Numbered from the stretch's first letter, positions 41,821 through 61,148 are shown. The stretch: DNA of 64,000 bases from Mesoflavibacter profundi (GCF_014764305.1 NZ_CP061703.1:1392800-1456799); one strand, 5' to 3'. Numbers and translations are program-made. The notes: generated by a model from the letters alone, not told the origin.

Positions 41821-42219
41821 TTGAATAATTTAAACTTTGAAGCTTTTCTTGAATGTATATTGATTTTTTATTCAACCGTAACGGAATGTTCTCCAACGGG
41901 ACAACACTCAGCACCTATTAAACCTATATACTCACTTAATATGTCTGTAAGTTTATCATCATCTAATCTATGGACATCAACTTACAGTCCATATCAGCAA
42001 GAACTTTTTGATATCATAAGTAAGTTTCATGAGAAAGATGGATGGAACTTTAAACAGATATCGGATTGGTTGATTGAGAACAATTATAAAACACCTAGAG
42101 GTAAGACGTTCACTCACACGCATTGTTGGAGTATTTATAAGAAGAAGAGCAAAAGCATTCAGAGGTTCAGTCGAGAGTTCGAACCTACAATAACGGATGT
42201 AAAGATTAATCAGATTTAA
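41821..42219 (+). pseudogene. Duplicated 3' fragment of the recombinase-domain ORF at 57328..57999 (last about 114 codons identical, unique 18-codon TTG-initiated N-terminus)
   Basis: The protein is identical to the C-terminus of the 223-aa ORF from VTECSPTGQ... onward. Confidence 0.6.
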
Positions 42220-42840
42220 TTAGGCAGAAAGATTAGTTGTCATGGCATTCTTTACCTTATATATGTAGTTAGGTGAGCATTCAACGATTCGACTAATCTT
42301 TCTGATTCCTATATCTTCATTAAGTAAGGTCATTATCTTTTGAACTTTTGGTTTAGATAAGAAGGTCTCAACACTTTCTGTACTACCGATTTTTCGTCCT
42401 TTATATTTACCATCTAATTTAGCACGTTCAATTCCTGCTAATGTTTTTTCTCTAGTCTGGTGGTATTGGAACTCACTAATCGAGCTTAATATATTAATAA
42501 GCAAGTTAGACATCACGCTCTCTTTACCATCAATAAGAGTAGTTATACCCTCATTTTGCGATGTGATAGGCACATTATAGCTATGGATAGTTTTAATGGT
42601 TTTAAGTATGTCCTCTAGGTCTCTTCCAAGACGGTCGATACGAAGGACTATCACTTGATTAATCTTACCGTTTGCAATATCCTCAATAAGTCGCTTACCA
42701 CTTGGACGTTCGAGGAATGGGATACGACCGCTGACACCTTTATCTTCATACACCTTCCAACCATCTTCAATTTTATCAATTTGAGTTCCGATGTTTTGAA
42801 GGTAGTGAGATGTTCTTAGGTAGTATCCAATATTGCTCAT
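42220..42840 (-). CDS. Serine recombinase, resolvase/invertase family (copy 1)
   Basis: 206 aa with a presumed Ser nucleophile in YLRTSH, the motif VLRIDRLGRD and a C-terminal HTH. It is 100% identical to the copy at 56707..57327. Confidence 0.85.
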   Translation of the reverse strand: MSNIGYYLRTSHYLQNIGTQIDKIEDGWKVYEDKGVSGRIPFLERPSGKRLIEDIANGKINQVIVLRIDRLGRDLEDILKTIKTIHSYNVPITSQNEGITTLIDGKESVMSNLLINILSSISEFQYHQTREKTLAGIERAKLDGKYKGRKIGSTESVETFLSKPKVQKIMTLLNEDIGIRKISRIVECSPNYIYKVKNAMTTNLSA

Positions 42841-42970
42841 AAATGTTATTAATTTAGGTTGTATTAAATAATAACACTAATATAGTGATAATTCCCTGAC
42901 AAGTGTATGTTTACGGCAATTATCTTATCGTGATTATGTATATTGAATAGATTAGACTTTTAAATAATAA

Positions 42971-43039
42971 CATTACAAATTTTGACCTGTGATAGAACTT
43001 TAATTAGTAATCTAAAAGTACAGGTCAAAATTTGTAATG
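42971..43039. promoter_or_regulatory. Perfect 20-bp inverted repeat (cattacaaattttgacctgt / acaggtcaaaatttgtaatg) with a 29-bp spacer, upstream of the recombinase gene; candidate recombination or operator site
   Basis: The dyad symmetry is read directly from the sequence. A mirrored copy lies at 56508..56576. Confidence 0.4.
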
Positions 43040-43182
43040 CAAGTGTCTGGTTTAACTTTTAATAAAGAGTTTTGTGACTATTATATAATTGGTATGACAT
43101 TGCCAAAATTAAAATGGATAGTTTGGTATAATGTTTATCGGGTTTTTCATATATTTAAGTGTAAATAATAACATATAAATAT

Positions 43183-45108: not shown

Positions 45109-45560
45109 TTTTTTATTTCGATTATCAATTTATCTAGTTTCTCAATCCAATTATCTTCATTAGTCTTAAAAAGAACTGCTCCAATATAAAATTCTTCAAA
45201 TTCCTTGTTATATTTTTGATTCAATTCTTTAAATGTCAATGCTCCATCATTAGTTGGAAATACATCAAACATTGTAAAGAGAATAGTAGGTAGGAATAAA
45301 TTTTTTCGTTTCATTTCTCTTAGAACTTTCTCTCCTCCAAATTGTTCATAATTTCCCCCCAAATCATTATTACCCTTCCCCCACAAAGGTATAGTCATAT
45401 CTAAAATCAGAAAATCATATTCTCTGAAATTTTTCTTTAACTCGGATACACCACTTTGATAGGATTCTTTTAAAGTAATAGAGTCACTACTAAAAAATTC
45501 TTTTAGACGAGCAATTTTAGTTATATCATCCTCAATAATTAATACTTTATTCATCTTCAT
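45105..45560 (-). CDS. Stand-alone receiver (REC) domain protein (DtcB-like)
   Basis: VLIIEDD and FLILDMTIP motifs in 151 aa with no output domain. A 14-bp overlap with the upstream kinase gene. Confidence 0.6.
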   Translation of the reverse strand: MKMNKVLIIEDDITKIARLKEFFSSDSITLKESYQSGVSELKKNFREYDFLILDMTIPLWGKGNNDLGGNYEQFGGEKVLREMKRKNLFLPTILFTMFDVFPTNDGALTFKELNQKYNKEFEEFYIGAVLFKTNEDNWIEKLDKLIIEIKK

Positions 45561-48500
45561 TTAATTTTACAAAAGGAAAAAATAATTCAACTGTTAAGTT
45601 ATTTTCGGAAAATGAAAAGTCAAACATGTCTGTTTTAGCAGAGGTTTCATAAATTAGAATCCTTTTAATTTTATCAAAACCACTTTTATCCTCTTTATTT
45701 GACCTATCAATATTGGAATGGTCGTTCCAATTTTGCTTTACTTCTTCAAGTCTTTTTCTGTTTTCAGAATAATCTTCATTTTCCTTTAAATTATTACAAA
45801 ATGCAATTTTTACATATTTATCAAGATGTAAATCGATACTAATATGAATCTTAACCTCGTTAGGTGTCAGTTTAGAATGAGAAATGATATTATTTAATAA
45901 TATATTAAAAACAAATATTGTACTTGAATAAACACCAAAAGGAGCTATATTATTTTGAATAGTAGGTTTTATGAGAAAATTAGGATTAATTCGATTAGTA
46001 AGAACAATACTGGCTTCAATTACAGTATCTATACTGAGAAGTGATGTAGAGTTTGTAGTGTTTAAATAAAACCAGTCTGATATAACCTCTAACTCTTTTT
46101 GTATTTCAGTGCCAGATTTAATTAAATTAGGTATAAGTTCACAATCTGAAGTTAAATTAAATTCTCGTACTTCTTCTATACAATTATCAATAATTTCTTG
46201 AAAATTAGTCCTAATATCACCTTTAAATTTATTTACTATTTTTTTCTGTAATGATATAAGAGTGTGCTCAACTAAATTTGTAAGCAACATATCTATAATA
46301 GTTTCAGTAGTATCAAATTTTTCTCTATTTCTTTCAAAAAAATCATATAATATATCATCATTTGTGAAAAACCCAAAAATACCATAATCCTTTTCTTTTG
46401 TCTTTTCTGTTTTAATCTGGATTAGTTTATCTACTATGAAAATAATATATTCGTCAATTTCAGATGAGAATTTCTTTAGAGCTTTTTGTACTCTAATATT
46501 TTCTACGAAATAACCACTGAGTTGTTGCGCCCATACATCATTATCCTTATATTCATTATTAAGTTTTGATGTTACCAAATTAAGTTTCTCAAAAACACTT
46601 CGGATATGGTTTTTCAAAGCACCGTGTCGAATTCTGGTGCTTAAGCAGCTGTCTAAACCATGCTCTTTACTAAATAAAAAATTCTCTCTAGATTCTAAAT
46701 AAATATTTTTAAAAGCCAAATATTCTGCGGAATTATATGAGTCAATTTTTGATGAACTAATAGATAGTAATTCATCCCAGTTTTGCTTGTTAGATGGATT
46801 AAAACTAATTAATTTTTGCGCTGATGAAGATTGTTCTATTTCTTTAAATCTTTTAAAATCATCCTTAAACTTTTTAATTTGTTTTTTTTTAAGATTGTCT
46901 ACATCAATATACAGTCTACCTTCATCTACCTCTTTTAAAACTTTTCTAACTGAATTGGTTCTTAATATCTCATTTATTTCTTTTTCATATTCGGTTTTTG
47001 AATCATTATTTAATTTTATTAGAATATTAAGAATCATTACCCTATCTTCTTCGACTTCACTAATAGAACCATAATCTGAGGAATATTTAATTGTGTCAAT
47101 GGTTGATACATTTTCAAGGAAATAAATAGTCTTACTTAAACCAAAGCGATGAACAAAAGAATCAATATCTAAATTTTTTAGGTCTTCAATATTATTTGCG
47201 AATAAAAAATCATCATAAGCTTCATATAGGTCAAACTCTTTACTGTGTAATGACATAACGATAGGAAACTCAATATGCACCTCAAAACCTTGCTTGTTTT
47301 TACACTCTTTAATTTTATTAAATAAAAGGGATGTGTTAATTTTCCTTGAACTAAAATTCTCATCAAAAAAAACAAGTCCATATAATTTTAATGCTTTGGA
47401 TAGTAAATTTTGATGAAGGTAAGAGTGGAATAATAAACTTATTTTTCTTTCTCTGTAATAATTGATTGTATCAAGTTTTGAGTCATTTTCTAACAATTCT
47501 ATTACTTCAGGATATTCCTTTTTATTATAATATCTTATAGCTTCAAAAGTTTTGTTTTGTCTATAATCTTTAGAAATTGGTTTTTTTAGATTTGTTGTTA
47601 GACCTAATTTGTATTCAGCAACTTGAAAAGAAAAATTGTTTCTAACAGGGGTAAGATTTTTTATAATACATTCTCTCGTATTATGAAAGAAAAGAAACTT
47701 GCTAGTTGTGTAGCTAGAAGAAAACAAGCCTCTTATGTAGTGTTTTTCTAAATTTGCTTCAATTTCAGATATTAAACTGAATACTTGTTTTCCAAAACTT
47801 GTATTCATATATCTTAACGCTGTAGTTAATAAGAAATCAAAATGCTCTTGTTCATCATTTTTGAAACTAAATACCTGAAATACACTAAAAAGAATTTTAT
47901 CGATAGCTCTACTGATGCCTGTTTTAATAAAATCAGACTCTAAATTAATTAAAGATTTACAATAAAATTCGTAATATTCAAATTCTAAAGGGTTTTCTTT
48001 TAACCCTTCTAACGAAAACTTAAGTGTTTTTTTAAACAACCCCTTATAGTAAGAGTTGGAACAATTAAAAAACAATTCATTATCATTGGCTGTATCGTAG
48101 TCATCCTTAATATTTAATAAATTATAAAGATTTATTAATCTACTGTCGTTATGAATAATTTTTTTAGCTTTTTTAAGAAAGACTTGATAGAACCTATCAT
48201 GCTTATTGATTTTATTAGTGTTATATATTATAGCATCAATTAAAATCAAATATTGGTCTACTATAGAAAGTGTGTTTGCTACATAGTAAACGCTTTCTAA
48301 ATTTTTATAAGAATAATCGTAATTGGGGTAATTAAAATTTTTGAACACCAAAAAATCTTCAATAACTCCATCTGCATTGATGGTGTCTATGTCATTTTGA
48401 AAATGATTTAAAAAGCTCTCAAAACTCATTTTAGATTCAACTCTTTTACTACTTGAATTAATAATGAATTCATAAAGAGGAGTTTTAATCTTAGTAAGGT

Positions 48501-48957
48501 AGTCACTTAGTAAATTCCAATTAGCTTCAGTCCCATTTATATTATCTTCCACAAATAAATGAGCCTCAATGCTCCATAGGCTAATTCCAAATTTGTCTTC
48601 TATTTCTAAAACTATTAATCTCGCTTCATCATAATTATCCAACATTAATAATGTCTCGAAATTATTTTTCAATTTCATGAAATCATTAATTTCTGAGAAA
48701 TAATCTTCTAAAATATTAGTTAGCCATCTAAACTCAATCTTTAAGTTTTGAGAAAAATTAAACGGTTCTTTCAGATGTATATCCTCAATTGAATTAAAAT
48801 AGGGGGTTTTGTGCAAAAAGTTTTTGAATAAAGAATGAAGTGAAAGAGCTTCTTTAAATTGACCTGAATTTACGTTATGCTTAATTTGGTCAATTTTCTG
48901 TGGTAGAGATGTGTCTCTATTTCTTAAAATTTCAACAATTTTTTTTCTATACTGCAT
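45547..48957 (-). CDS. Large sensor protein with C-terminal histidine-kinase-like ATPase domain (DtcA-like)
   Basis: 1136 aa. The C-terminal roughly 200 aa have a GHKL-ATPase-like pattern, and a putative H-box (LSTRIRHGALKNHI) precedes it. Confidence 0.55.
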   Translation of the reverse strand: MQYRKKIVEILRNRDTSLPQKIDQIKHNVNSGQFKEALSLHSLFKNFLHKTPYFNSIEDIHLKEPFNFSQNLKIEFRWLTNILEDYFSEINDFMKLKNNFETLLMLDNYDEARLIVLEIEDKFGISLWSIEAHLFVEDNINGTEANWNLLSDYLTKIKTPLYEFIINSSSKRVESKMSFESFLNHFQNDIDTINADGVIEDFLVFKNFNYPNYDYSYKNLESVYYVANTLSIVDQYLILIDAIIYNTNKINKHDRFYQVFLKKAKKIIHNDSRLINLYNLLNIKDDYDTANDNELFFNCSNSYYKGLFKKTLKFSLEGLKENPLEFEYYEFYCKSLINLESDFIKTGISRAIDKILFSVFQVFSFKNDEQEHFDFLLTTALRYMNTSFGKQVFSLISEIEANLEKHYIRGLFSSSYTTSKFLFFHNTRECIIKNLTPVRNNFSFQVAEYKLGLTTNLKKPISKDYRQNKTFEAIRYYNKKEYPEVIELLENDSKLDTINYYRERKISLLFHSYLHQNLLSKALKLYGLVFFDENFSSRKINTSLLFNKIKECKNKQGFEVHIEFPIVMSLHSKEFDLYEAYDDFLFANNIEDLKNLDIDSFVHRFGLSKTIYFLENVSTIDTIKYSSDYGSISEVEEDRVMILNILIKLNNDSKTEYEKEINEILRTNSVRKVLKEVDEGRLYIDVDNLKKKQIKKFKDDFKRFKEIEQSSSAQKLISFNPSNKQNWDELLSISSSKIDSYNSAEYLAFKNIYLESRENFLFSKEHGLDSCLSTRIRHGALKNHIRSVFEKLNLVTSKLNNEYKDNDVWAQQLSGYFVENIRVQKALKKFSSEIDEYIIFIVDKLIQIKTEKTKEKDYGIFGFFTNDDILYDFFERNREKFDTTETIIDMLLTNLVEHTLISLQKKIVNKFKGDIRTNFQEIIDNCIEEVREFNLTSDCELIPNLIKSGTEIQKELEVISDWFYLNTTNSTSLLSIDTVIEASIVLTNRINPNFLIKPTIQNNIAPFGVYSSTIFVFNILLNNIISHSKLTPNEVKIHISIDLHLDKYVKIAFCNNLKENEDYSENRKRLEEVKQNWNDHSNIDRSNKEDKSGFDKIKRILIYETSAKTDMFDFSFSENNLTVELFFPFVKLNEDE

Positions 48958-49358
48958 TTTCTCTATACTTATTTTAACAACATAGTTCTTTTACTTTTAT
49001 CATCCAGTTCTTTATATATTCAAAATCAATATTTTCAATATGTTTTGTTATCGTTTCCCGTCTTGATTCTTCTGGTAACTGAAAATAAGTGTCATCCTTG
49101 GCTTCTTCTCTATAGTAGCCCTCTCTTTACATAATGGTTTCAACTACTTCTTCAAATTAATATGTTGGCAGAATCCCCCAATCAAAATTCTAATGTAGTT
49201 AATGTTAACTTATTTTTTGACATAAAATATTTTAGTTTATTCACGAGTTTAACTATGTCATTTACTTAATAGAAATAACATAGCTATAAAAAAATTAAGG
49301 GAGAGTTAAAGATATAATTTATTACTTAAAAGGAGATTTTTAAGTAAAAAAATATTGG

Positions 49359-49625
49359 TTAAGGTTTTTTATCAAAAACTAACAATTCTGAAGTGGTTAA
49401 ATCAAAAGCAGTTGCTATACGTTTTAACATAGAAATCTTCATCTCTTGCCTTCCTAATTCATATTTTCTTAGGTTCTGAGCATCAATTTCGGCTTTGAAA
49501 GCAATTTCTTCAATTGATAAACCTCTTTCTTTTCTCAAAGTTCTTAGGTGTTTTCCTAGTTCAATACAAAACAAGGAAACCTCGTTTTTACGTTCTCTTT
49601 TGGTCATATTCAAATTTGAGAACAA
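49359..49625 (-). CDS. XRE-family HTH transcriptional regulator
   Basis: Classic HTH_3 sequence (LGKHLRTLRKERGLSIEEIAFKAEIDAQNLRKYELG). The start may be the internal Met at 49607. Confidence 0.7.
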   Translation of the reverse strand: MFSNLNMTKRERKNEVSLFCIELGKHLRTLRKERGLSIEEIAFKAEIDAQNLRKYELGRQEMKISMLKRIATAFDLTTSELLVFDKKP

Positions 49626-49781
49626 TTAGGTATTATCAACCAATTGCAAATAACAGGTTGTTTACAACCTTTTTTGTTTTACATTTGTAAGAAAATTACA
49701 GTCATTAAGGAAAACCGTAAAGCTTTCAGAAGCTTCTGAAATATCTTTAGTGATTTTCAAATATTAATCAATCTAAATACA

Positions 49782-50219
49782 ATGAAAAACACCCGAATTA
49801 TTTTTTATTCATCATTATTAGCAACAAGTCTATTTATATCCTCATGCTCTAGTGATGATTCTTCAGAACAAAGAACAGAACCTACTACTACACAATTAGA
49901 CCTATTAAAAGGTACATGGGAAGAAAGCAATGTTACCCATGATGGCGTTGACAGTGAAACTCAAATTATTTGCAATAATGAAAGAGAACAATATGTCTTT
50001 AATGAAGATAACTCTTTTACGGAAAGATATTTTGACGATTACTGCGATGAAGACTTTGATAATGGCGAGTTTGAATTATCTGAATCTTCTCTAACATTGA
50101 ATTTTGACGATTCATCAACAGATGTATATCAAATAGTAGAATTAAATGATACGACATTAAAAATTAGCTTTGATGATGGTGGAGTATTAGTTGAAGAAAC
50201 TTATGTTAAAATAAATTAG
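49782..50219 (+). CDS. Lipocalin-like lipoprotein
   Basis: Signal peptide with an SSC lipobox and a LKGTWEE lipocalin-like start. Confidence 0.5.
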   Translation: MKNTRIIFYSSLLATSLFISSCSSDDSSEQRTEPTTTQLDLLKGTWEESNVTHDGVDSETQIICNNEREQYVFNEDNSFTERYFDDYCDEDFDNGEFELSESSLTLNFDDSSTDVYQIVELNDTTLKISFDDGGVLVEETYVKIN

Positions 50220-50230
50220 AAGATTTAAAG

Positions 50231-51274
50231 ATGAGAAAAACAAATTTTTTAATAGTACTAGCTATACTAAATTGTATGCTTTCTTTCAGTCAAGAAACAT
50301 TCAAATTTCGTGATATAAGTAGATATAGCATTTATACCGTAAGAGAAGGAACATGGTTTGTGCCAGATTATGAAGCTGAAGTAAAAAATCCAATGTATGA
50401 TGGGTTTTATAACGATGCAGTGAAAGAGTTTATTGAGGATTATGAAGTTATTTCAAAAAAATTAAGTGAATCTGAAAATGTAAAAGGTAAAGAAGGAAGG
50501 AAACTTAGAAAGTCTCTTAGCGCTCAAAGAATTGAAATTTTAACTAAATATCAACCGTACTTTAGTGGATTAAAATCTAAATGGTCTGGGACAGTACACT
50601 TTGAAGGTATTGATATTAATAGTCCAAACTTACTAGAAGAAAGTAAAAAAGTATTAAAAGAATTAGAAGGGACTAATTTGGTGATTAAGGATTTAAACGA
50701 AAAAGACCTTTTAAACAAAGTACCTAAAAAAAGTTTAACATTCAAAAAACTTATGTATTTAGGAGACAATACAAATATTAAAGGAGAATATTTTTTAGCT
50801 GGAAAAATAAAGGTTTCATACTCTTATAATGTAAATGATGGAACTTATGAAGACCAAGTGTTAGAAGGGGACAAAAATTATTCAAGATATTCTACTTATA
50901 ATTTTTTTAAAAGTGTAGATGGTTCTGGTACTGATTTTTATAATAGCAATATTGATATATATGACCCATATGCAGTAGAAAGAAAACCTAAAAAACTTAA
51001 CGCAGATGAAAAAAAAATTGTAAGTAAGATGAAAACTTACAAAGCTGAAATAACTAGTTTATTAGATAAAATTGCTCAGTATAGAAGTAAAACGAAAGCT
51101 GCTTACGAAGCAACAAAAAAAGGACAAGCTCTTCAGAAAAAAGTACAAGCATTATATGATAATAACGATGACAAATACTATGATTTCATGCAGCTATTAG
51201 ACATGGAAACAAAAGAAGTCATGGTCGAATTTAATCAAGTTTTAAAAGGGGCTGTAATTATATTTGGCTTATAG
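50231..51274 (+). CDS. Hypothetical secreted protein
   Basis: Signal peptide and a coiled-coil C-terminus. Confidence 0.45.
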   Translation: MRKTNFLIVLAILNCMLSFSQETFKFRDISRYSIYTVREGTWFVPDYEAEVKNPMYDGFYNDAVKEFIEDYEVISKKLSESENVKGKEGRKLRKSLSAQRIEILTKYQPYFSGLKSKWSGTVHFEGIDINSPNLLEESKKVLKELEGTNLVIKDLNEKDLLNKVPKKSLTFKKLMYLGDNTNIKGEYFLAGKIKVSYSYNVNDGTYEDQVLEGDKNYSRYSTYNFFKSVDGSGTDFYNSNIDIYDPYAVERKPKKLNADEKKIVSKMKTYKAEITSLLDKIAQYRSKTKAAYEATKKGQALQKKVQALYDNNDDKYYDFMQLLDMETKEVMVEFNQVLKGAVIIFGL

Positions 51275-51298
51275 TTTTAGCATTAAATAATAGAATAA

Positions 51299-51335
51299 AA
51301 AACCACTCAGTATTTGAGTGGTTTTTCATTTTTTA
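51299..51335. terminator. Bidirectional rho-independent terminator
   Basis: Hairpin aaaaaccactcagtatttgagtggtttttcatttttt. Confidence 0.55.
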
Positions 51336-51341
51336 TTCTTC

Positions 51342-51830
51342 CTAAATATCTTCTCCCCACCAATCCACAATCGTCTTAGCTTTTATCTTATCAATAGATT
51401 CTAAATTTTCACAATTTAGTATATCATCTGCTTCTATTTGATAGCAATTCCAATATCCAGAGAAAAAATCATCCATTACCTTTAACTCAGAATGTGGTGT
51501 ATCCTTCCCATCTACTATAATAAGAACATATTTTACAGCTCCTTTATGAAATATCGTAATATGTGGAACAAATAATAATTTTCCTCTATCAAAATCTGGT
51601 TTAAACCATTCAAGATAATCTACATATTGTTCATCCCTTTCATTGTAAGGAATAATACCTTTAGATTCTTCAAAATAATAAGAGTTATCAGATTCATAAA
51701 AAGGTAAATCTTTATAAACACCATAATTTCGTTTCCAATGGAATTGTGCTATTTCCGAAGAATCACCAGACATGTCTTCTTTCCTTAATATTTTAAATAA
51801 TTTTTCTTTTGCTTTTTCTATTTTATTCAT
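51342..51830 (-). CDS. Hypothetical protein
   Basis: ORF only. Confidence 0.4.
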   Translation of the reverse strand: MNKIEKAKEKLFKILRKEDMSGDSSEIAQFHWKRNYGVYKDLPFYESDNSYYFEESKGIIPYNERDEQYVDYLEWFKPDFDRGKLLFVPHITIFHKGAVKYVLIIVDGKDTPHSELKVMDDFFSGYWNCYQIEADDILNCENLESIDKIKAKTIVDWWGEDI

Positions 51831-51834
51831 TTTT

Positions 51835-52005
51835 TTAGTTTTTTACTTTTTCTAGAAATTCCTTTAATTGACCTTGAGATATTCTTACAGTATTATCGAT
51901 TTTATAACTTTTTAAATCCCCTTTTTTTATCCAATTATCTATTGTGAATATGGATACTGAAAAATAAGACTGAAGTTCTTTACGTGTGTATAACCTTTCT
52001 TCCAT
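51835..52005 (-). CDS. Small Xis/AlpA-like HTH DNA-binding protein (56 aa; not in the supplied ORF track)
   Basis: My manual translation gives MEERLYTRKELQSYFSVSIFTIDNWIKKGDLKSYKIDNTVRISQGQLKEFLEKVKN. This is the HTH_17-type pattern common in Bacteroidota mobile elements. Confidence 0.5.
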   Translation of the reverse strand: MEERLYTRKELQSYFSVSIFTIDNWIKKGDLKSYKIDNTVRISQGQLKEFLEKVKN

Positions 52006-52198
52006 GTTTGTTTAATTTCTTATTGCTTTATACTATATATATACTTTAAGCTAATATGATTTAGTAGTAAGCAGATAAGTTTAGATATAAAAATCAATTA
52101 TTAGTGAGTACCTATATTTTCAAAATATTACTTTAGCAAGGGGTGAATTTTGGAAGTATTCATGAAAGTAATCCTTAAATTTTTACAACAATATAAAT

Positions 52199-55100
52199 AT
52201 GACACATAAGAGCATTCAATTTAAAATAACATCAGTTGAAAAAAATCAAAATGGGTATACACCTCTTGATTATGATAAAAAATACTTTACGGACTACAAT
52301 GCTAGATTCAGTATAGGTAGTAAGGATTATGGTCGTAAAGTGTTATTCTACGGAAGAACTTCTCTTAAATATAGATTTCAGTCCGAAATAGAGGAGGCTA
52401 AAAGAGCTGAACTATCCATTTTCGAACATGAAGAAAAGTCAAAAACACCTAGAAGTATAAACGAAAAGGATTATCATGTTGATGGAATATATGCACATTA
52501 CAGTACTAATGAACTTATTATTGCTTTAAATGCATTTTCTGCCCAAAATATTTCTTCCCATTATTCTATGAAAATGGAATTGAAAGACCTTAAGAAGAAA
52601 TCCATTGAACAAGGTATTGAATTTGAAATACCTTCAAGATATAATTACAAAGCTAAGGGATTAGTTATTTCAAAACGATTAATGAAAGGAGGGATAAGTA
52701 CACAGTATAATTCTATTTGTCAGGGTTCTCCATTTTTGTTTTTTGATGTAGATGTAAAGCCAGAAGAAAACCCAAGATTATATACAGATGATGGGATTCC
52801 TAATAAGTTAAATACCGAAGTGTTTGAATATTTAAAAAAAATCGCTCTAATAACAGCTAGGTCAGCAAGTGGACTTGGTATTTGTGGTGTTATATATGTT
52901 CCTAGTTTAGCGAATGAAACTGATAATAGACTTCATAAAAGTATGGGGATGGCAGTTTATGATTACATTAATAATAAACTAGACCTACCTTGTAAAATTA
53001 AATTTGATGAAGCTCAAGCTCAATTTACTCAAGGACGTTCGTTTCCTGTTCAGTTTTATAGTAACAATGACAGATATAATTGGGATAAAATAGAATTAAA
53101 TAAAGATGCTATCGAATTTAAAATTGAGTCTATTGAAGTTGATAAAGAACTAAATGAAGTTAGATATGAAAATAAAAGAGAGGAATCAACATACACATAC
53201 ACATACACTGATGATGATTATAATCAAGAATATAACAATCAACCATTAATTAAAAAATATAACATGGAACATTTCTGTTATGAAATATTCATGAACAATG
53301 GATATGAAATAACTAAAGAAGAAAATTCTCAAGGATATTCTAAACTATCAAAAGTAGGTAAGAGAAATGATTCCATATCATTATCAAGTAATAACACATT
53401 TAAATGTTTTACGAGTAGCCTAAAGGGTTTTACCCCATTTGATTTATTATCTCAACTTGAATTTAATGGCGATTCCAGAGAGGCTTATAATTATGTTAAG
53501 AGTATTTATGAAGAAAAAAATAACAAAGAAATATTTGATACAAAATCTGTTCTGAATAATTGGGAATTGCTTGATGATGAAGATAAATTTTATGACCATC
53601 CAATGGAGAGTCTTGAAAAAACTTACTCATTAGTAGAGTTAAATGAAGTCATTGGTTCAAATACAATTTTTAACTCTTTTAAAATTGACGATAATGGTAA
53701 ATTTGAAGTTGTAGATACTACTGCAAAAGATTTATTAGGAATAACAGAACGAGATATTGAATTATCTCTTCATAGAACATACAAATCCACAGGTTACGAA
53801 TATCCTGTTCTTGACATAATTAAAAATACTGATATATGCACAACTTTAAAGGTTGAGGGATTTCTAACAACAGATTTAATCATTAAGAATTGTACATCAT
53901 ATATAAACTATATATATGCAGGTTGTGGATTAGGAAAAACAACAACCTTTCTGGGTAAAAACAATCCTAATATAGATGGCTTAACGAAAGATTTTAGTGT
54001 CTTATTTATAGTACCTCGTAAAATGATGGTAGAACAACAAGCTCTAACAGCAAATGGTTTATGTCAAATAGTTGCATCTACTGGAGATAAAATAATTAAA
54101 ACTAATGATGGCATTGAATATATTCAGTCAATTGGTAACAATTCTGAAAAATTATATGATGATAAAAATAATCTTAAATCTGTAATTTTAACCTATGACC
54201 AATTCGTTCATCTTCCAAATGATTTAGTTTCTAAATATGATTACATTGTTTTTGACGAAGCTCACTTATTAACTTCAGATTCTTATAGAGAAGCAATTCC
54301 AAAATCATTTTTAAAAATTGAAGAAGTTAAAAAAGAAAACTCAAAGGCAAAATTTATTTTATTATCTGCAACTCCTAGTATAGAATTATTGACAATATCT
54401 AAATATCATAAAAATGATTTTAAACTTTTAAACATTGTTAAATCTCACAAGGAGACTCCATCTTTATACGTGCATAATTTTATTCATACCGATAGAGTAA
54501 AAAAAGATATCCAAATATTTGAGCAAGTAGTATCTGATTTAGACCAAGGAAAGAAAGTTGTAATTTTTTGTGAAAATAAAAATCAAATAAATTTACAATG
54601 GAACAAGTTAGAGGAATACTGCAATGATATGGGGATTAAGCCTCCATCAAGAAGTTATGTTTCATCAGAATCAAAAGAGCTAGACCTTTATAAAGAATTA
54701 GTAAAAAATGAAAATCTTAATGTAGATTTAATGTATAGTACCTCTGTATTAAATGTTGGTGTAAATATATCATCAGGGGTAGAGAAAGGGGTAAGTTTTA
54801 TTTTTGATTATAGTTCTAATAATGGCTATGACACAGCTATAGGGCAAATTCAATTATTATTTAGAAACCGTTCTAGATTAACTGAAATACATTGTTTCTC
54901 TAATTTGATGGATACTTCAAATCCTAATTTGTTCAAAATTAATAAACCTGCAATCAAAAACGATGAAGTCAATTCTATCTTTGACAAGAACAAATTAGAT
55001 AAAACTTATGAAAATAAAACGCTAGCAAAAAGCACTAAATATAGTGATGTGAGTTTTAGTCATTTTGAAGAAGTATCAGATTGTGCAACAGCTACATTTG

Positions 55101-56407
55101 AACTAAACGAGCAGTTAATCACAGAGCAAAAGAGATTGGATACCTTTATTAAACAAGCAGTAACTCATGACTGTAAGGTTTATTATGTTTTGAATTCAGA
55201 TACAGGAAACTCAAAATTGAAAACAGGAGATTTATCAAACGAGTTCTCATTGAATGTCATTAATGAATTACTAACTTTAGATACAGGTCAAAGAATTTAT
55301 TTTGAAAAAGGAATACAATCAACTGCTGATAAAATAGAGCCTACATTTAGTTTAGACCAGAATAGCCTACAAATAAGAGACGAAATCAGGTATTATCAAT
55401 GTGCGTATCATTCTGCTTTTCATCCATTATTACAAAAATTAAGAAGGAGTTATAACACCTTAATGTATTATTACAGGGAAAAAGATAAACTTAAAGACGT
55501 TTTCAATTTTATTATTAACACATCAAGTAAAAAAGCAATAGACAAAAGAATTGTAGATTATATTAACACTTATAAAACCATTCATGAAGATAGCATAATT
55601 ACACAAATGACAGACAGTGTTATTAGTTCAAAAGGAGATTGTATTGATAAGATAACTTTAAAAAACATCCTTAATTCAATTATACCAAATGAAATAAGCT
55701 CTCATTTTTCAAAGAATCTTTCTGATGAATTAATAAAAGGCAATTATCAAAATGTTAAGGTTATAAGTGAACCACAATTTCAACATTTTTTTAAAGAACA
55801 TATTATCAATAAAGTTAATGACTCTTTTCTAAAATTATATAAAACTTCTACCTCAAAGACAGATAGTGAAGAGTTAGAAATAGAGAGTTTGAAAATTTTA
55901 GAGAGTAATAGGAAAATTGAGTCAGATGTCAATGATTCCCCTATTTTAAGTTTTTTAGGGTTTGATATGAATATTAACTCTTTAAATAATGCAGATTTAT
56001 TTGAAAAACTTCTTAAGGAGCTTTCTGATAAATACCCTAGAGAAGGGTTGAATCAACATATATTAGTTGATTATAACATAGAAAAGGATAACTTTAATTC
56101 TAAAAAAACCATATCCATTAGTATAAACGATTTTTATTTAAAATACGATAATGAATTGTCTGTTTTTAGAGAAAAACCTGAAAATAGAAGAAGTAAATTT
56201 TGTTATGCAATTATTGACAACGGAACTGAAGAAGTGATAATTGAAAAAAGCATGAAATTATTACATTCAACGTTAAGTGAAAAAGGTATTTTATCTAAAA
56301 TGGTGAGTCCTCAAAATTACAACTTTGAAAAACTGAATAATTTTAATAAAACAGATAAGTTAAATTCTTGTAGGAATTATACGGTAATCAAAAAGATTCC
56401 TATATAA
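52199..56407 (+). CDS. Large primase-like (DxD) N-terminus fused to an SF2 DEAH-box helicase
   Basis: FFDVDVK is an AEP-primase-like motif in the N-terminal third. Walker A (AGCGLGKTT), DEAH (IVFDEAHLL) and SAT (LLSATP) helicase motifs follow. 1402 aa. Confidence 0.55.
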   Translation: MTHKSIQFKITSVEKNQNGYTPLDYDKKYFTDYNARFSIGSKDYGRKVLFYGRTSLKYRFQSEIEEAKRAELSIFEHEEKSKTPRSINEKDYHVDGIYAHYSTNELIIALNAFSAQNISSHYSMKMELKDLKKKSIEQGIEFEIPSRYNYKAKGLVISKRLMKGGISTQYNSICQGSPFLFFDVDVKPEENPRLYTDDGIPNKLNTEVFEYLKKIALITARSASGLGICGVIYVPSLANETDNRLHKSMGMAVYDYINNKLDLPCKIKFDEAQAQFTQGRSFPVQFYSNNDRYNWDKIELNKDAIEFKIESIEVDKELNEVRYENKREESTYTYTYTDDDYNQEYNNQPLIKKYNMEHFCYEIFMNNGYEITKEENSQGYSKLSKVGKRNDSISLSSNNTFKCFTSSLKGFTPFDLLSQLEFNGDSREAYNYVKSIYEEKNNKEIFDTKSVLNNWELLDDEDKFYDHPMESLEKTYSLVELNEVIGSNTIFNSFKIDDNGKFEVVDTTAKDLLGITERDIELSLHRTYKSTGYEYPVLDIIKNTDICTTLKVEGFLTTDLIIKNCTSYINYIYAGCGLGKTTTFLGKNNPNIDGLTKDFSVLFIVPRKMMVEQQALTANGLCQIVASTGDKIIKTNDGIEYIQSIGNNSEKLYDDKNNLKSVILTYDQFVHLPNDLVSKYDYIVFDEAHLLTSDSYREAIPKSFLKIEEVKKENSKAKFILLSATPSIELLTISKYHKNDFKLLNIVKSHKETPSLYVHNFIHTDRVKKDIQIFEQVVSDLDQGKKVVIFCENKNQINLQWNKLEEYCNDMGIKPPSRSYVSSESKELDLYKELVKNENLNVDLMYSTSVLNVGVNISSGVEKGVSFIFDYSSNNGYDTAIGQIQLLFRNRSRLTEIHCFSNLMDTSNPNLFKINKPAIKNDEVNSIFDKNKLDKTYENKTLAKSTKYSDVSFSHFEEVSDCATATFELNEQLITEQKRLDTFIKQAVTHDCKVYYVLNSDTGNSKLKTGDLSNEFSLNVINELLTLDTGQRIYFEKGIQSTADKIEPTFSLDQNSLQIRDEIRYYQCAYHSAFHPLLQKLRRSYNTLMYYYREKDKLKDVFNFIINTSSKKAIDKRIVDYINTYKTIHEDSIITQMTDSVISSKGDCIDKITLKNILNSIIPNEISSHFSKNLSDELIKGNYQNVKVISEPQFQHFFKEHIINKVNDSFLKLYKTSTSKTDSEELEIESLKILESNRKIESDVNDSPILSFLGFDMNINSLNNADLFEKLLKELSDKYPREGLNQHILVDYNIEKDNFNSKKTISISINDFYLKYDNELSVFREKPENRRSKFCYAIIDNGTEEVIIEKSMKLLHSTLSEKGILSKMVSPQNYNFEKLNNFNKTDKLNSCRNYTVIKKIPI

Positions 56408-56419
56408 TTTAATTAATTG

Positions 56420-57672
56420 ACCAAACTATCCATTTTAATTTTGGCAATGTCATACCAATTATATAATAGTCACAAAACTCTTTATTAAAAGTTAAACCAG
56501 ACACTTGCATTACAAATTTTGACCTGTACTTTTAGATTACTAATTAAAGTTCTATCACAGGTCAAAATTTGTAATGTTATTATTTAAAAGTCTAATCTAT
56601 TCAATATACATAATCACGATAAGATAATTGCCGTAAACATACACTTGTCAGGGAATTATCACTATATTAGTGTTATTATTTAATACAACCTAAATTAATA
56701 ACATTTATGAGCAATATTGGATACTACCTAAGAACATCTCACTACCTTCAAAACATCGGAACTCAAATTGATAAAATTGAAGATGGTTGGAAGGTGTATG
56801 AAGATAAAGGTGTCAGCGGTCGTATCCCATTCCTCGAACGTCCAAGTGGTAAGCGACTTATTGAGGATATTGCAAACGGTAAGATTAATCAAGTGATAGT
56901 CCTTCGTATCGACCGTCTTGGAAGAGACCTAGAGGACATACTTAAAACCATTAAAACTATCCATAGCTATAATGTGCCTATCACATCGCAAAATGAGGGT
57001 ATAACTACTCTTATTGATGGTAAAGAGAGCGTGATGTCTAACTTGCTTATTAATATATTAAGCTCGATTAGTGAGTTCCAATACCACCAGACTAGAGAAA
57101 AAACATTAGCAGGAATTGAACGTGCTAAATTAGATGGTAAATATAAAGGACGAAAAATCGGTAGTACAGAAAGTGTTGAGACCTTCTTATCTAAACCAAA
57201 AGTTCAAAAGATAATGACCTTACTTAATGAAGATATAGGAATCAGAAAGATTAGTCGAATCGTTGAATGCTCACCTAACTACATATATAAGGTAAAGAAT
57301 GCCATGACAACTAATCTTTCTGCCTAATTAAATCTGATTAATCTTTACATCCGTTATTGTAGGTTCGAACTCTCGACTGAACCTCTGAATGCTTTTGCTC
57401 TTCTTCTTATAAATACTCCAACAATGCGTGTGAGTGAACGTCTTACCTCTAGGTGTTTTATAATTGTTCTCAATCAACCAATCCGATATCTGTTTAAAGT
57501 TCCATCCATCTTTCTCATGAAACTTACTTATGATATCAAAAAGTTCTTGCTGATATGGACTGTAAGTTGATGTCCATAGATTAGATGATGATAAACTTAC
57601 AGACATATTAAGTGAGTATATAGGTTTAATAGGTGCTGAGTGTTGTCCCGTTGGAGAACATTCCGTTACGGT
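56420..57672. repeat. Right arm of the perfect 1253-bp inverted repeat
   Basis: See the left arm. Confidence 0.9.
56707..57327 (+). CDS. Serine recombinase, resolvase/invertase family (copy 2, identical)
   Basis: The protein sequence is identical to 42220..42840. Confidence 0.85.
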   Translation: MSNIGYYLRTSHYLQNIGTQIDKIEDGWKVYEDKGVSGRIPFLERPSGKRLIEDIANGKINQVIVLRIDRLGRDLEDILKTIKTIHSYNVPITSQNEGITTLIDGKESVMSNLLINILSSISEFQYHQTREKTLAGIERAKLDGKYKGRKIGSTESVETFLSKPKVQKIMTLLNEDIGIRKISRIVECSPNYIYKVKNAMTTNLSA

Positions 57673-57999
57673 GGAGTAGTCACGAACGGGGGTGAGTTGA
57701 TTTAACTTTTTACGACCTCGTTTAACTGGCATAATAGATATTTGGGTTCCGTTTTCGGAACCCTTTTCTTTTTCTAATACGACAGGTATTTTAAAATTAA
57801 TATTTAAAAGGTGCAGTTTATTCTCATTATCATAGTTCACTGTTATTTTATCTATTATAACCTTGAGAAACTCCTTTTTCATCTCGTCTGAAATATTGGT
57901 TTGAGTTTTGATATGTTCTGAGAAATTGTCAATCCAGTCAAACCATTTCTGTTCAGTTCCTAATTGCCTTAGTTTACTTCTCAAACCTTCAATCTTCAA
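57328..57999 (-). CDS. Recombinase-domain protein (large-serine-recombinase-like 'recombinase' motif at C-terminus); TTG start, possibly a truncated remnant
   Basis: The C-terminus (LIENNYKTPRGKTFTHTHCWSIYKK) fits the G-x-W...IL pattern of the recombinase domain. I found no ATG or GTG in the 43 in-frame codons upstream before a stop at 58129..58131. Confidence 0.45.
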   Translation of the reverse strand: MKIEGLRSKLRQLGTEQKWFDWIDNFSEHIKTQTNISDEMKKEFLKVIIDKITVNYDNENKLHLLNINFKIPVVLEKEKGSENGTQISIMPVKRGRKKLNQLTPVRDYSTVTECSPTGQHSAPIKPIYSLNMSVSLSSSNLWTSTYSPYQQELFDIISKFHEKDGWNFKQISDWLIENNYKTPRGKTFTHTHCWSIYKKKSKSIQRFSREFEPTITDVKINQI

Positions 58000-58140: not shown

Positions 58141-61100
58141 CTATAAAGATTTACGTAACATTTCTTTTACCATATTAAAAACCATTGTATTAAACTCCTC
58201 TTTAGCTTCTTCGTTGTCATTAATGACTTTATAAAAATCAAAATTTGTTGTTACGTGTTTCAGTAATTCGTCTTGTGCTAATTTATCACTTGTAATTCTT
58301 GCATTCTGTTCGTCAGAATGCTCGATAGAATTTAGCATATCTTTGTTTTTAGCCACTCCATTTACAACACTTTCAGCCATTTGCCTAACCTTATCAGCAT
58401 CTTCAAATTCAGTTCCATAGCGGTCATTAAAAGTTTTAATAATATTAGATAATTGGTCAATTTCAGGGTCAGATGTTCCGCCTCTCATTTCTGTAGGAAT
58501 AGGTTGTAAATCTTCTCCCTGTTCCATTGCTATATTTGTGGTGGCTTCCAATTGTAGGCGGTAACTATCCATATCTATATTATCTAAAACACCTTGTGAA
58601 AAATCAGGTTCAGCATCAGTTCCTAATTTGCTTTGTAAATGATTTAAGAAAATATACAGACGCTCTAAATATGCATTTTCAAAATCTACAATTTGAGATA
58701 AGAATATATACAAACGTACATAAGTCTTTACTTTTGCTCTAAAATCCGCTTGTTGCTCTTCTTCTAAATCTTCTCTAAAAACAACACTTGACTGGTCTAA
58801 AATGTCGTGTAACTGGTCTACTGTTACATTTGCTAATATTTTATTTGAAAACTTTTCTACTTGCTCTCTAGAATAGACTTGATAACTGTCTAAAGCATCT
58901 TGTAAGTCAAATAATTTATTTGGGTCTGTAGCCTCTCCTAAAATAGTATTTTCAAAATATGGTTTAAATGCTTTTTCTATATCCTCAGAAGAATTGGCAA
59001 AATCTAAAACAAAAGTATCTGTTTTTAACGGATGACTTCTATTTAGTCGGGATAAGGTCTGTACCGCATTTACACCACCTAATTTCTTATCTACATACAT
59101 TGTATGAAGCAGTGGTTGGTCAAAACCTGTCTGAAACTTATTAGCTACTAATAAAAATTTGTATTCATCTTTTTCAAATTCTTCAGGTATGTTACCGCTT
59201 GGAAAACCATTTAAACTTGATTCAGTTTCTCCATCTATTTCCCCAGAAAAACCAACAATTGCTTTGTATGGACTATTAATAGATTTTAGATAAGCATCAA
59301 AAGCGTGTTTGTATTGTACCGCTTTAGCTCTGCTACTTGTAACCATCATAGCTTTTGCCTTGTTACCCATTTTATTCTTCTTAACTACATTATCTATAAA
59401 ATGGTTAATCATTAAAATGGATTTCTTTTTGATAGCATGGTCATGACCTTCGACATAGGCTTTCAGTTTTTTTTGAGCCTTTTTCTTATCGTACTCTGGG
59501 TCGTCTTCTATCTTTTTCAGTAAAGCATAAAAGCTTTGGTATGTTGTATAATTAAGCAATACATCTTTAATAAAACCTTCTTCTATGGCTTGTTTCATTG
59601 AGTACAAATGAAATGCTTTGTATTTGGTTTTTCCATCCTGTTCAAATGGTTCGCCAAATAATTCTAAGGTTTTGTTTTTTGGCGTAGCTGTAAAAGCAAA
59701 ATAACTTGCATTAGGTAAGAGTTTACGAGCTTTAACTATTGCCCTTATAAAATCTTCACCTGTTACTTCATTATCTTCTGTTTCATCATAGTTTTCTAAA
59801 TCACTTTGAAGCTGTTCTTCGTCTGAAACTTTGGCTAGTGTTTCGTTTAATTTACGAGCCATTTGTCCACTTAAACTACTATGTGCTTCGTCTATAATGA
59901 TTCCAAAATTATTGCTTGGTAAATCACCAATATCCTCGACAATATGGGGGAATTTTTGAATGGTAGTAATTATTATTTTTTTTCCTTCTTCTAATGCAGT
60001 TTTTAATTGCTTACTTCCATCTGTAATAGCTTGTACAACACCTTTGACTTGTTGGTATTGTTTTATGTTCTCTCGTATTTGCTTATCTAAAACTCTTCGG
60101 TCTGTGATGACAATAACGGTATCAAAAATTGTTTTAGAACCTGATTTATCATGTAAACCAACCAGTTGGTGAGCCAACCAAGAAATGGAGTTACTTTTAC
60201 CTGAACCTGCCGAATGTTGTATCAAATATTTTTGACCTGCCCCTTTTTCTTGCGCATCTGCTAATAATCGGGAAACAGCGTTTAATTGATGAAAACGAGG
60301 AAATATAAGTTTTTTAGTTTTTTTTACTTTTTTCTTACCCTTAGCGTCTATATACTCTTTGTCTTCTGTGATTAATTTAGCATAGTTTTGAAGGATATTG
60401 GTAAGAGTATCTTTAGTTAAAATCTCTTTCCACAGGTAATCTGTTTTTATACCACCATTAGGTTCATTTCCTGCTCCGTTTTTATTTCCTTTATTGAAAG
60501 GTAAAAAATAAGAGCTGTCGCCTTCTAGCTTTGTACACATCCATACTTCTTCTGTGTCTACAGCAAAATTAACAACCATCCTGCCTAAACGAAATAACTC
60601 TTCGTTTGGGTCACGGTCAGTTTTGTATTGTTTTATGGCATGTTTTACATTTTGATTGGTAAGCTCGTTTTTAAGCTCAAAGCTGATAATTGGCATACCA
60701 TTAATAAACGTAACAATGTCTAAAGATTTTTTGTTTTTTGGCGAAAAATAGACTTGACGCATCACCGAAAAAATATTGGCTTGGTAATAGTCATTTGCTT
60801 TTTTGTTGAATACAGAAACTGGTTTGTCATAAAACAAGCGTAGCTTGGTATCTGTAAAGCCATCTACAATACCTTTACGCAAAACTTCTATAATGCCCTT
60901 TTGTTTTATTTGGTCGTTTAAACGCTTTACTATTTTTTGTTTGTAAAGGTCTTTATGGTAACGTTTTAATTTGTCTAATACTTTGGCTTGTGTTTTTTCT
61001 AAAAACTGAAACAGCAAATCTTCATCAATACAATTGATATTATTGTAATTGCTGTTTGCTCTTTCTACATAGTTGTTGCTATTAACTAAATAATCAACAA

Positions 61101-61146
61101 TATGCTTTTCAAAGCCATTTTCTTTTGTATTGGTGTTTTTACTCAT
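58141..61146 (-). CDS. hsdR: Type I restriction enzyme R subunit
   Basis: An HsdR-type N-terminal nuclease region, SF2 motifs including GIIIDEAHSS, and 1001 aa. Confidence 0.85.
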   Translation of the reverse strand: MSKNTNTKENGFEKHIVDYLVNSNNYVERANSNYNNINCIDEDLLFQFLEKTQAKVLDKLKRYHKDLYKQKIVKRLNDQIKQKGIIEVLRKGIVDGFTDTKLRLFYDKPVSVFNKKANDYYQANIFSVMRQVYFSPKNKKSLDIVTFINGMPIISFELKNELTNQNVKHAIKQYKTDRDPNEELFRLGRMVVNFAVDTEEVWMCTKLEGDSSYFLPFNKGNKNGAGNEPNGGIKTDYLWKEILTKDTLTNILQNYAKLITEDKEYIDAKGKKKVKKTKKLIFPRFHQLNAVSRLLADAQEKGAGQKYLIQHSAGSGKSNSISWLAHQLVGLHDKSGSKTIFDTVIVITDRRVLDKQIRENIKQYQQVKGVVQAITDGSKQLKTALEEGKKIIITTIQKFPHIVEDIGDLPSNNFGIIIDEAHSSLSGQMARKLNETLAKVSDEEQLQSDLENYDETEDNEVTGEDFIRAIVKARKLLPNASYFAFTATPKNKTLELFGEPFEQDGKTKYKAFHLYSMKQAIEEGFIKDVLLNYTTYQSFYALLKKIEDDPEYDKKKAQKKLKAYVEGHDHAIKKKSILMINHFIDNVVKKNKMGNKAKAMMVTSSRAKAVQYKHAFDAYLKSINSPYKAIVGFSGEIDGETESSLNGFPSGNIPEEFEKDEYKFLLVANKFQTGFDQPLLHTMYVDKKLGGVNAVQTLSRLNRSHPLKTDTFVLDFANSSEDIEKAFKPYFENTILGEATDPNKLFDLQDALDSYQVYSREQVEKFSNKILANVTVDQLHDILDQSSVVFREDLEEEQQADFRAKVKTYVRLYIFLSQIVDFENAYLERLYIFLNHLQSKLGTDAEPDFSQGVLDNIDMDSYRLQLEATTNIAMEQGEDLQPIPTEMRGGTSDPEIDQLSNIIKTFNDRYGTEFEDADKVRQMAESVVNGVAKNKDMLNSIEHSDEQNARITSDKLAQDELLKHVTTNFDFYKVINDNEEAKEEFNTMVFNMVKEMLRKSL

Positions 61147-61148
61147 AG

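Follow-up and report, generated by a model that had tools for sequence, protein, structure and literature searches.

A probable primase-helicase of an integrative-element lineage encoded in a defence island of Mesoflavibacter profundi

Introduction

What does a 1402-residue protein that looks part primase and part helicase do in the genome of Mesoflavibacter profundi, and to what kind of DNA does its gene belong? The gene occupies positions 52199-56407 (plus strand, ATG start) of a 64,000-nucleotide stretch (GCF_014764305.1, NZ_CP061703.1:1392800-1456799), which we call the window; all positions are counted from its first letter. An initial annotation, made from the sequence alone, proposed that this gene and a small excisionase-like helix-turn-helix (HTH) gene upstream form the replication or mobilization module of an integrative element or, alternatively, that the large protein itself serves in defence.

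The answer we consider probable is that the large protein serves as primase-helicase in the replication or maintenance of a lineage of small integrative elements in marine Flavobacteriia. The copy described here would lie within a defence island, either in an element remnant, in a rearranged or decayed element, or in an element whose integrase is encoded past position 64000. What the analysis shows is the domain composition of the protein, its remote homology to archaeo-eukaryotic primases (AEPs) and a conserved integrase-HTH-helicase module in its relatives.

The large protein and its helicase core

Both the large open reading frame (ORF) and the 56-residue HTH_17 gene that diverges from it were confirmed as genuine and conserved. 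The sequence motifs listed in the initial annotation are all present: FFDVDVK at residues 181-187 (nt 52739-52759), the Walker A motif AGCGLGKTT at residues 574-582 (nt 53918-53944), DEAH at residues 686-689 (nt 54254-54265) and SAT at residues 723-725 (nt 54365-54373). These four, together with a motif VI-like Q..RNR at residues 885-891, are invariant in an alignment of six close homologues.

Residues ~560-900 (53876..54898, plus strand) make up the helicase core of superfamily 2 (SF2). The Pfam families DEAD (E 1.8e-13, 51 bits against a cut-off of 26) and ResIII (E 9e-11, 42.4 bits against a cut-off of 22.5) both match residues 571-727, so that Walker A, DEAH and SAT come with above-threshold matches, as expected for the first RecA domain (RecA1) of an SF2 DEAD/DEAH helicase. 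The second RecA domain (RecA2) is less distinct: Helicase_C gives E 0.0073 and 17 bits against a cut-off of 23.5, while a motif V-like STSVLNVGVNI and a motif VI-like QIQLLFRNRSR are conserved among the close homologues. With a profile of the whole family, the best match to a PDB sequence, and the only one, was a weak hit to a DEAD-box helicase (E 0.004). Judged by sequence, the middle third of the protein is thus a divergent SF2 DEAH helicase. The initial annotation had the right kind of motor but placed it in the C-terminal half, where residues 930-1402 are in fact a separate extension.

Curated libraries (Pfam, NCBIfam, PHROGs and PADLOC) matched nothing in the whole protein beyond the helicase core. 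Searched separately, the N-terminal part (Pfam, NCBIfam and PHROGs) and the C-terminal part (Pfam) gave no match either. Pfam revealed no nuclease or other effector domain, and PADLOC-DB v2 returned only weak matches to the helicase core (SngC, 2.7e-5; Cas3, 5.8e-5) with no full-length system match.

A family of related proteins

The large protein is rare: among 5.8 billion clusters, a word-indexed search returned five close relatives, with 94, 47, 41, 37 and 38% identity to it; two are from Tenacibaculum and the rest are metagenomic. For more remote relatives, 1.84 billion representatives were searched exhaustively with HMMER and a profile of residues 1-560 (E<=1e-3). This yielded 73 proteins, each representing a cluster at 50% identity and most of them of marine metagenomic origin, that share a core corresponding to residues ~150-290 of the large protein. 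Most are ~1000-1060 residues long and have the same N-terminal domain followed by an SF2 helicase; DEAD or ResIII was present in 30 of the 46 members scanned.

Other searches added little. Word-indexed searches with the alignment of the N-terminal domain and with the family protein P0077 returned almost nothing, a scan of a genome collection for homologues of the large protein found only the Tenacibaculum contig already known, and tblastn against annotated plasmids and phages gave only weak matches to the helicase core (Bernardetia plasmids and the helicase of Tenacibaculum phage PTm1).

Several family members contain the domain DUF6371. By eye it may resemble a Toprim domain (VAIVESEKTA...LFPDLNG); the segment matched nothing among PDB sequences. 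If DUF6371 is indeed Toprim-like, these proteins would combine AEP-like and DnaG-like primase modules in one chain.

The N-terminal domain

An AEP-like, BT4734-related domain occupies residues ~85-310 (52451..53128, plus strand). Twelve of its positions (D183, D185, K187, R221, S222, S224, G227, H246, D270, Q273, R280 and N301) are invariant or nearly so in 38-54 divergent members; D183, D185, S222, G227, H246, D270, Q273 and R280 are invariant throughout the family, and S224, like F269, is nearly so. They fall largely into three conserved blocks, PFLFFDIDVK, RSxSGxGI(A/C)G and FDxAQxKFRQxR, and the resulting order (DxD, then S-x-S-G-x-G, then a hydrophobic residue and Asp, plus Gln and Arg) is that of AEP motifs I, II and III. 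Motif I, an Asp-hydrophobic-Asp/Glu at the end of a strand, is represented by F-F-D183-V-D185 on the strand modelled at residues 179-184, and it aligns to the F-D-I-D of BT4734-like proteins in hhalign. Motif III is represented by the invariant D270, which aligns to the L-D of the same proteins. An invariant histidine, H246, sits 17 residues past the motif II block.

An AlphaFold model of the domain built from the wider-family alignment (mfe071aaa6c95; predicted local distance difference test score, pLDDT, 83.9; predicted template modelling score, pTM, 0.80) has a beta-strand ending at DxD and places SGxG between two beta-strands. When this model was searched with Foldseek, the AEP domains of NrS-1 and of poxvirus D5/E5 took the top ranks, none of them significantly.

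Comparison of profiles points to a more specific relationship. Aligned by hhalign with proteins carrying BT4734-like_N, a set of only three sequences, the N-domain family gave a probability of 38% and E 3.3e-4 over 126 columns, with all motifs in register; when the second domain of the close family was included, the values were 95.8% and 7.9e-9 over 261 columns. The Pfam model itself, PF08800, is matched neither by the whole protein nor by residues 1-560, even at E<=10, and PriCT-1 and PriCT-2 (PF08708/PF08707) have no Pfam match in the large protein. Among the 46 scanned proteins of the wider family only P0077 matches PF08800, in place of the N-domain rather than on it. Since the large protein is formally outside PF08800 and its kinship rests on motifs in register and on profile-profile comparison, we regard the N-domain as a far, so far unannotated branch related to the BT4734-like AEPs. 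The primase-like resemblance of the N-terminus noted in the initial annotation is real, although it can be detected only through family profiles and structure: the curated HMMs suggested as a check divide, DEAD and ResIII matching the protein and those for BT4734-like_N, PriCT and AEP not doing so.

According to published work, the BT4734-like family has a distinct motif pattern in which the motif II histidine is substituted, its member AgaPP is an active primase-polymerase, and these 'VirEN' domains are found both on mobile elements and in defence systems (PMC11724360). Catalytic competence of the N-domain in the large protein would follow solely from its invariant acidic triad.

The second domain and the C-terminal extension

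The AEP-like domain is followed by a second small alpha/beta domain at residues ~345-440 (FKCFTSSLKGFTPFDLL..., 53231..53518, plus strand), which was recognized from the profile match in P0077 and from the hhalign comparison over both domains. P0077 matches the profile over this domain only (profile positions 326-431) and carries PF08800 at its residues 58-176, the equivalent place of the N-domain. The second domain thus follows a true BT4734-like_N domain in P0077, as it does in P0079, and in P0080 its place is taken by PriCT_2. A structural model of residues 1-560 built from six sequences reached pLDDT of only 45 overall, the alignment being shallow, with 70-86 in the second domain; a fold search with this model was uninformative on that domain. 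By eye it might be a zinc-finger relic of CHC2/DnaG type that has lost its cysteines.

The C-terminal extension, residues ~930-1402 (54987..56404, plus strand), comprises ~470 residues without a Pfam match. Local profiles of residues 930-1150 and 1150-1402 match only the ~1400-residue relatives P0001-P0006 (P0011 partially) and not the ~1000-residue family. By this measure the large protein belongs to a longer subfamily (~1400 residues) marked by the extension.

Genomic context of the relatives

What kind of DNA encodes these proteins? For the ~1000-residue subfamily, 79 metagenomic and 8 viral loci were fetched, and flanking ORFs were called and clustered in 52 of them. A recurring order was found upstream of the helicase and on its strand: a tyrosine integrase, a ~279-residue protein (c279), an HTH_17 protein, in some loci a ~98-residue protein (c98), and then the helicase. 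The integrase is ~438 residues long (Arm-DNA-bind_5, SAM_5 and Phage_integrase), belongs to one conserved family and was present in 32 of the 52 loci. The HTH_17 protein (~92 residues) was present in 40, directly or almost directly upstream and on the same strand; c279 was found in 20 and c98 in 14. Genes downstream of the helicase vary and include HlyD/CusB-type efflux genes, PorP/SprF and a gene for a 2065-residue protein. In 5 of 19 loci checked, the 3' end of a tRNA gene (Leu, Arg or Met) faces the element. The fixed module of integrase, HTH_17 and helicase genes, with variable genes downstream and tRNA genes nearby, typifies the backbone of small integrative elements that target tRNA genes, here in Flavobacteriia. 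The c279 and c98 genes occur in loci L006-L074 (for example, L008:1699-2535 and L047:5333-5629); c279 has no Pfam match, and c98 has only a weak, sub-threshold match to TrmB.

One distant member (28% identity, 1058 residues) is encoded in a phage contig (L086:7145-11537) along with a tape measure protein, a portal protein and a head protease. The next gene encodes a phrog_62 DNA helicase, which puts two helicases in one replication module. Together with the integrase-bearing loci, this supports the proposed link to an integrative element: the relatives are integrative-element backbone genes, and one is in a phage. The companion proposal, of an element type that lacks a tyrosine integrase, is not supported, as the 32 loci and one locus of a close homologue (L001) carry such an enzyme, which the 64-kb window lacks.

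The surroundings of the close homologues are more mixed. The locus of the 47% homologue, L001, has the same divergent pair as the window (a 183-residue gene and an HTH_17 gene), and downstream lie two GmrSD genes and, past them, an integrase from the family found in the ~1000-residue elements (HMM E 8e-122). The locus of the 94% homologue, L003, has a type I restriction-modification (R-M) system where the window has the candidate defence system PDC-M60. In Tenacibaculum locus L004, type I R-M genes, XRE genes, and a gene for a 432-residue homologue of a 347-residue protein of the window accompany the large gene, while in L002 housekeeping genes lie downstream of it. The comparison of contexts suggested in the initial annotation accordingly gives two pictures: close relatives lie among defence genes in three of four loci, and the wider family lies in integrase-bearing elements.

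The divergent HTH_17 gene and its neighbours

The 56-residue protein encoded on the minus strand at 51835..52005 matches HTH_17 (PF12728) with E 9.5e-8 and 32.6 bits (cut-off 27) and is of the Xis/AlpA/MerR-like type. It also matches TIGR01764 'excisionase' (2.8e-6, 27.6 bits, just under the cut-off of 28.8), phrog_66 'excisionase and transcriptional regulator' (2.3e-7), the mad1 model of MADS (1.5e-7) and, most relevant here, an HMM of the HTH_17 cluster from the related elements (6.3e-9). These matches make it a homologue of the HTH_17 protein encoded between integrase and helicase in those elements. The gene adjoins the large gene in L003 (98% identical) and L001 (54% identical), so the initial description of a divergent Xis/AlpA-like gene stands, apart from a spacer of 193 bp where 190 had been given.

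This spacer (52006..52198) is AT-rich and is presumably a divergent control region; it contains only short imperfect inverted repeats. A scan for sigma-70 promoters stayed at background level, the method being unsuited to Bacteroidota. On the other side of the HTH gene and co-transcribed with it is a gene for a 162-residue protein (51342..51830, minus strand), a conserved partner that has no family match in Pfam, NCBIfam, PADLOC or PHROGs. It is 99% identical in L003, and its counterpart in L001, the 183-residue gene found in the corresponding place, is 38% identical (E 1.6e-27).

These genes are part of a block at 49140..56444 that the window has in common with metagenomic contig L003 (blastn, 95.8% nucleotide identity). 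Its order is an XRE HTH gene (49359-49625, minus strand), a lipocalin-like lipoprotein gene (49782-50219, plus strand), the gene for the secreted-looking 347-residue protein (50231-51274, plus strand), the 162-residue and HTH_17 genes and the large gene. To the left of the block the two genomes part, with PDC-M60 in the window versus type I R-M in L003. The 432-residue homologue of the 347-residue protein in L004 is encoded directly upstream of the large gene.

The island and the inverted repeat

From position 1 to ~41.7 kb the window contains housekeeping genes, and from ~41.8 kb to its end a low-GC island. In order, the island encodes a 206-residue resolvase, an NT5C-like protein, PDC-M60 C, B and A, the block from the XRE gene to the large gene, a second resolvase, hsdR, GmrSD and DUF7834. 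The NT5C-type 5'-nucleotidase gene (43183-43671) precedes PDC-M60 along with a 116-residue ORF. Of the PDC-M60 genes, C (44002-45108) and B (45105-45560) have receiver-like N-termini, and A (45547-48957) was matched with E 2e-67. The hsdR (type I restriction), GmrSD-type DUF262/DUF1524 and DUF7834 genes occupy 58141-63925 on the minus strand, hsdR and GmrSD taking up 58141-63116. The hsdR gene has 82% nucleotide identity to a Tenacibaculum contig, and hsdM and hsdS are presumably past the window end.

The two resolvase genes belong to a near-perfect inverted repeat of 1259 nt whose arms, at 41869..43127 and 56420..57678, bracket 13.3 kb and differ at only two sites (41871 and 41874, at the outer edge). 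The right arm begins 12 nt past the stop codon of the large gene. Each arm contains an identical 206-residue resolvase/invertase with a C-terminal HTH_7 (genes at 42220-42840, minus strand, and 56707-57327, plus strand), the last 117 codons of an ORF with a 'Recombinase' domain, and a 69-nt hairpin with perfect 20-nt stems (42971-43039 and 56508-56576). The 'Recombinase' ORF is complete only on the right, where it encodes 223 residues (57328-57999, minus strand), lies tail-to-tail with the resolvase gene, and matches the Pfam domain weakly while lacking the catalytic domain of resolvases. On the left the ORF is cut down to 132 residues and has a different N-terminus (41821-42219, plus strand). 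Because there is no target-site duplication and the outer edge of the arm cuts this ORF, the repeat looks like an inverted segmental duplication and not the ends of a discrete element. Serine recombinases as borders, the remaining part of the original element proposal, are not supported, given these same features and the inclusion of PDC-M60 between the arms. In L003 the contig breaks off at the corresponding junction of large gene and repeat, which indicates that the repeat probably exists there too. The 13.3-kb block could invert by homologous recombination.

Comparison with known systems

The closest comparison for the N-terminal part is with the BT4734-like proteins (VirE N-terminal, PF08800; the AgaPP and CAPP_B PrimPols). 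The motif order K..P.I, F-D-I-D, S-x-S-G-x-G and hydrophobic-D ... R-x-R-Y is the same, the motif II histidine is missing in both, P0077 and P0079 have the same second domain after their AEP domain, and both groups occur in Bacteroidota mobile elements. The differences are that the BT4734-like proteins have a motif II lysine where the large-protein family has Cys or Ala, that their partner is a VirE/DUF3987-type P-loop ATPase rather than an SF2 DEAH helicase, and that the large protein has no PriCT and falls below the Pfam model at any threshold.

In overall architecture, there is a likeness to the All3500-family fusions of AEP and SF2 domains (with UL9-like or pVOG9714 helicase domains; Kazlauskas et al. 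2018, PMC5862659). These too combine an AEP and a divergent SF2 helicase in one polypeptide and lie on integrated elements with tyrosine integrases, as the relatives of the large protein do. Their AEP, however, is of the PrimPol-PV1 branch, whereas the present one is BT4734-related, and the large protein adds the second domain and the 470-residue extension; this likeness is one of architecture.

Phage P4 alpha, ORF904 of pRN1 and Pri-Rep of staphylococcal islands likewise join primase and helicase in one protein or operon. Genes of this type lie beside a small AlpA/Xis-type HTH gene and an integrase gene, and autonomous replication of the excised element is presumed. Their helicases are SF3, SF4 or AAA+ in contrast to SF2 here, the primase of P4 alpha is of the Toprim type, and no origin or iterons were found at the large gene. 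Finally, the mobile element ICETh2 of Thermus thermophilus encodes both a PrimPol and a helicase, and its setting, too, is rich in defence genes (PMC7693054). There the two are separate genes, and the resemblance is one of gene content and setting. In experiments on ICETh2, the role found was in limiting the uptake of environmental DNA, not in replication (PMC7693054).

Discussion

How might the large protein work if it is, as we think probable, the primase-helicase of an integrative element? Integrated mobile elements are known to encode proteins in which an AEP domain is joined to an SF2-like helicase (PMC5862659). The element would leave the chromosome as a circle, or possibly stay in situ, and the protein would load on the element DNA. 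Its SF2 DEAH motor could then unwind that DNA while the N-terminal AEP-type domain makes or extends a primer, with the acidic triad D183/D185/D270 predicted to bind the metal for priming. The HTH_17 protein may be the Xis/AlpA-type regulator of the element or its recombination directionality factor. Catalysis, the role in replication and that of the HTH protein are what we infer from the comparisons above.

A number of observations weigh against this picture. In the 64-kb window, which ends within the island, HMM searches and tblastn found no homologue of the integrase, c279 or c98 and no integrase remnant; there is also no tRNA gene, and there are no att sites or flanking direct repeats. Origin-like iterons are absent from the intergenic regions flanking the large gene. 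No primase model of Pfam, NCBIfam or PHROGs (BT4734-like_N, PriCT, Prim-Pol or others) matches the N-terminus, with Pfam even at E<=10, and the N-domain profile gave only chance-level matches to PDB sequences. AEP motif II (s-x-H) is not preserved: S222-x-S224-G-x-G227-I-C229 has neither His nor Lys at the expected position, which is occupied by C229 here and by Ala in most relatives, and a domain with Cys or Ala at this site might lack catalytic activity or have another function. A second architecture in the family consists of Zn_ribbon_16, the N-domain, DUF6371 and sometimes DUF6965 (P0028, P0030, P0033, P0041 and P0059); if DUF6371 is itself a primase module of the Toprim type, as it may be, priming by the N-domain would be redundant there. 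Of the other four loci encoding close homologues, three (L001, L003 and L004) contain defence genes as well, and the PrimPol-helicase pair of ICETh2 is not needed for replication of its element (PMC7693054).

Could the protein instead be a helicase-based effector of defence or DNA interference? A primase-helicase co-opted from a mobile element would then sense or process invading DNA, with the HTH_17 and XRE proteins as regulators; suggested models are the ICETh2 pair and the VirEN PrimPols associated with CRISPR or DRT. The initial annotation had offered defence as its alternative, and we consider it possible but doubtful, with less support than the element. The large gene does lie between PDC-M60 (44002-48957) and hsdR/GmrSD (58141-63116), its close homologues adjoin type I R-M (L003 and L004) or two GmrSD genes (L001), and the window is without an integrase. 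The HTH gene matches MADS mad1, the ~1400-residue relatives carry the additional 470-residue extension, BT4734-like PrimPols occur in defence systems (PMC11724360), and the ICETh2 PrimPol limits the uptake of foreign DNA without replicating the element (PMC7693054). Proximity, however, fails to discriminate, as defence genes are commonly cargo on integrative elements, and in the wider family the gene is invariant backbone beside the integrase rather than variable cargo, where defence genes normally sit. In addition, L002 has housekeeping genes downstream, the PADLOC matches (SngC and Cas3, E about 1e-5) are weak and confined to the helicase core, and the protein has no detected nuclease or effector domain. 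A narrower version, which we think unlikely, is that only the ~1400-residue subfamily is a domesticated primase-helicase, now a stand-alone defence or DNA-interference system with the HTH_17 and 162-residue proteins as partners, which would, for instance, act on incoming DNA by priming or unwinding it and so mark it or lead to its destruction. Within that version, a subordinate possibility is that the 13.3-kb block flanked by the identical invertase genes forms a defence cassette that is switched by inversion.

The missing motif II His/Lys raises the question of whether the N-domain is a non-catalytic, DNA-binding AEP relic, the protein then being an accessory of excision and integration or a translocase that binds an origin or att site together with the HTH_17 protein and a recombinase. 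Tight linkage to HTH_17 and integrase genes in the relatives would fit such a role, as would the co-occurrence of the N-domain with the possibly Toprim-like DUF6371 and a zinc ribbon, and excision of Bacteroides NBU1 and Tn4555 needs element genes beyond an integrase and a directionality factor (PMC5704250). Yet D183, D185, D270, Q273 and R280 are invariant across 38-54 divergent sequences, which argues for a conserved active site, and BT4734-like enzymes are active without the histidine (PMC11724360); we therefore find a relic quite improbable. Least supported, and in our estimate very improbable, is a composite element in which the 13.3-kb segment between the identical resolvase genes is a mobile or invertible unit driven by serine recombinases, with the large gene as its replication or mobilization protein. 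The 1259-nt arms, each with its HTH_7-bearing resolvase/invertase and 69-nt perfect-stem hairpin, the start of the right arm 12 nt after the stop codon and the contig break in L003 at the same junction are what suggest it. Against this, no target-site duplication is present, the outer boundary of the arm is inside an ORF complete only on the right, and small enzymes of the resolvase/invertase type use short sites, not 1.2-kb arms. The segment also includes the unrelated PDC-M60 system, which L003 lacks, and the relatives of the large gene rely on tyrosine integrases.

Mobile elements with a primase-helicase gene beside one for an Xis-like HTH protein are in principle already known. The novelty lies in a family of AEP-like domains without annotation, with 73 representatives, in the fusion of this domain to an SF2 helicase and in the stereotyped element backbone of which it is part in marine Flavobacteriia. 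The N-domain family lies outside every curated model and marks a previously undescribed backbone of tyrosine integrase, c279, HTH_17, c98 and primase-helicase, and the cargo of the islands so marked includes metal-efflux and defence genes, among others. With a profile of the N-domain it would be easier to delimit mobile islands and their defence cargo in Bacteroidota genomes. Of greater interest is whether the long subfamily without an integrase, to which the Mesoflavibacter profundi protein belongs, was recruited for defence; the interest of the locus would rise if that were true.

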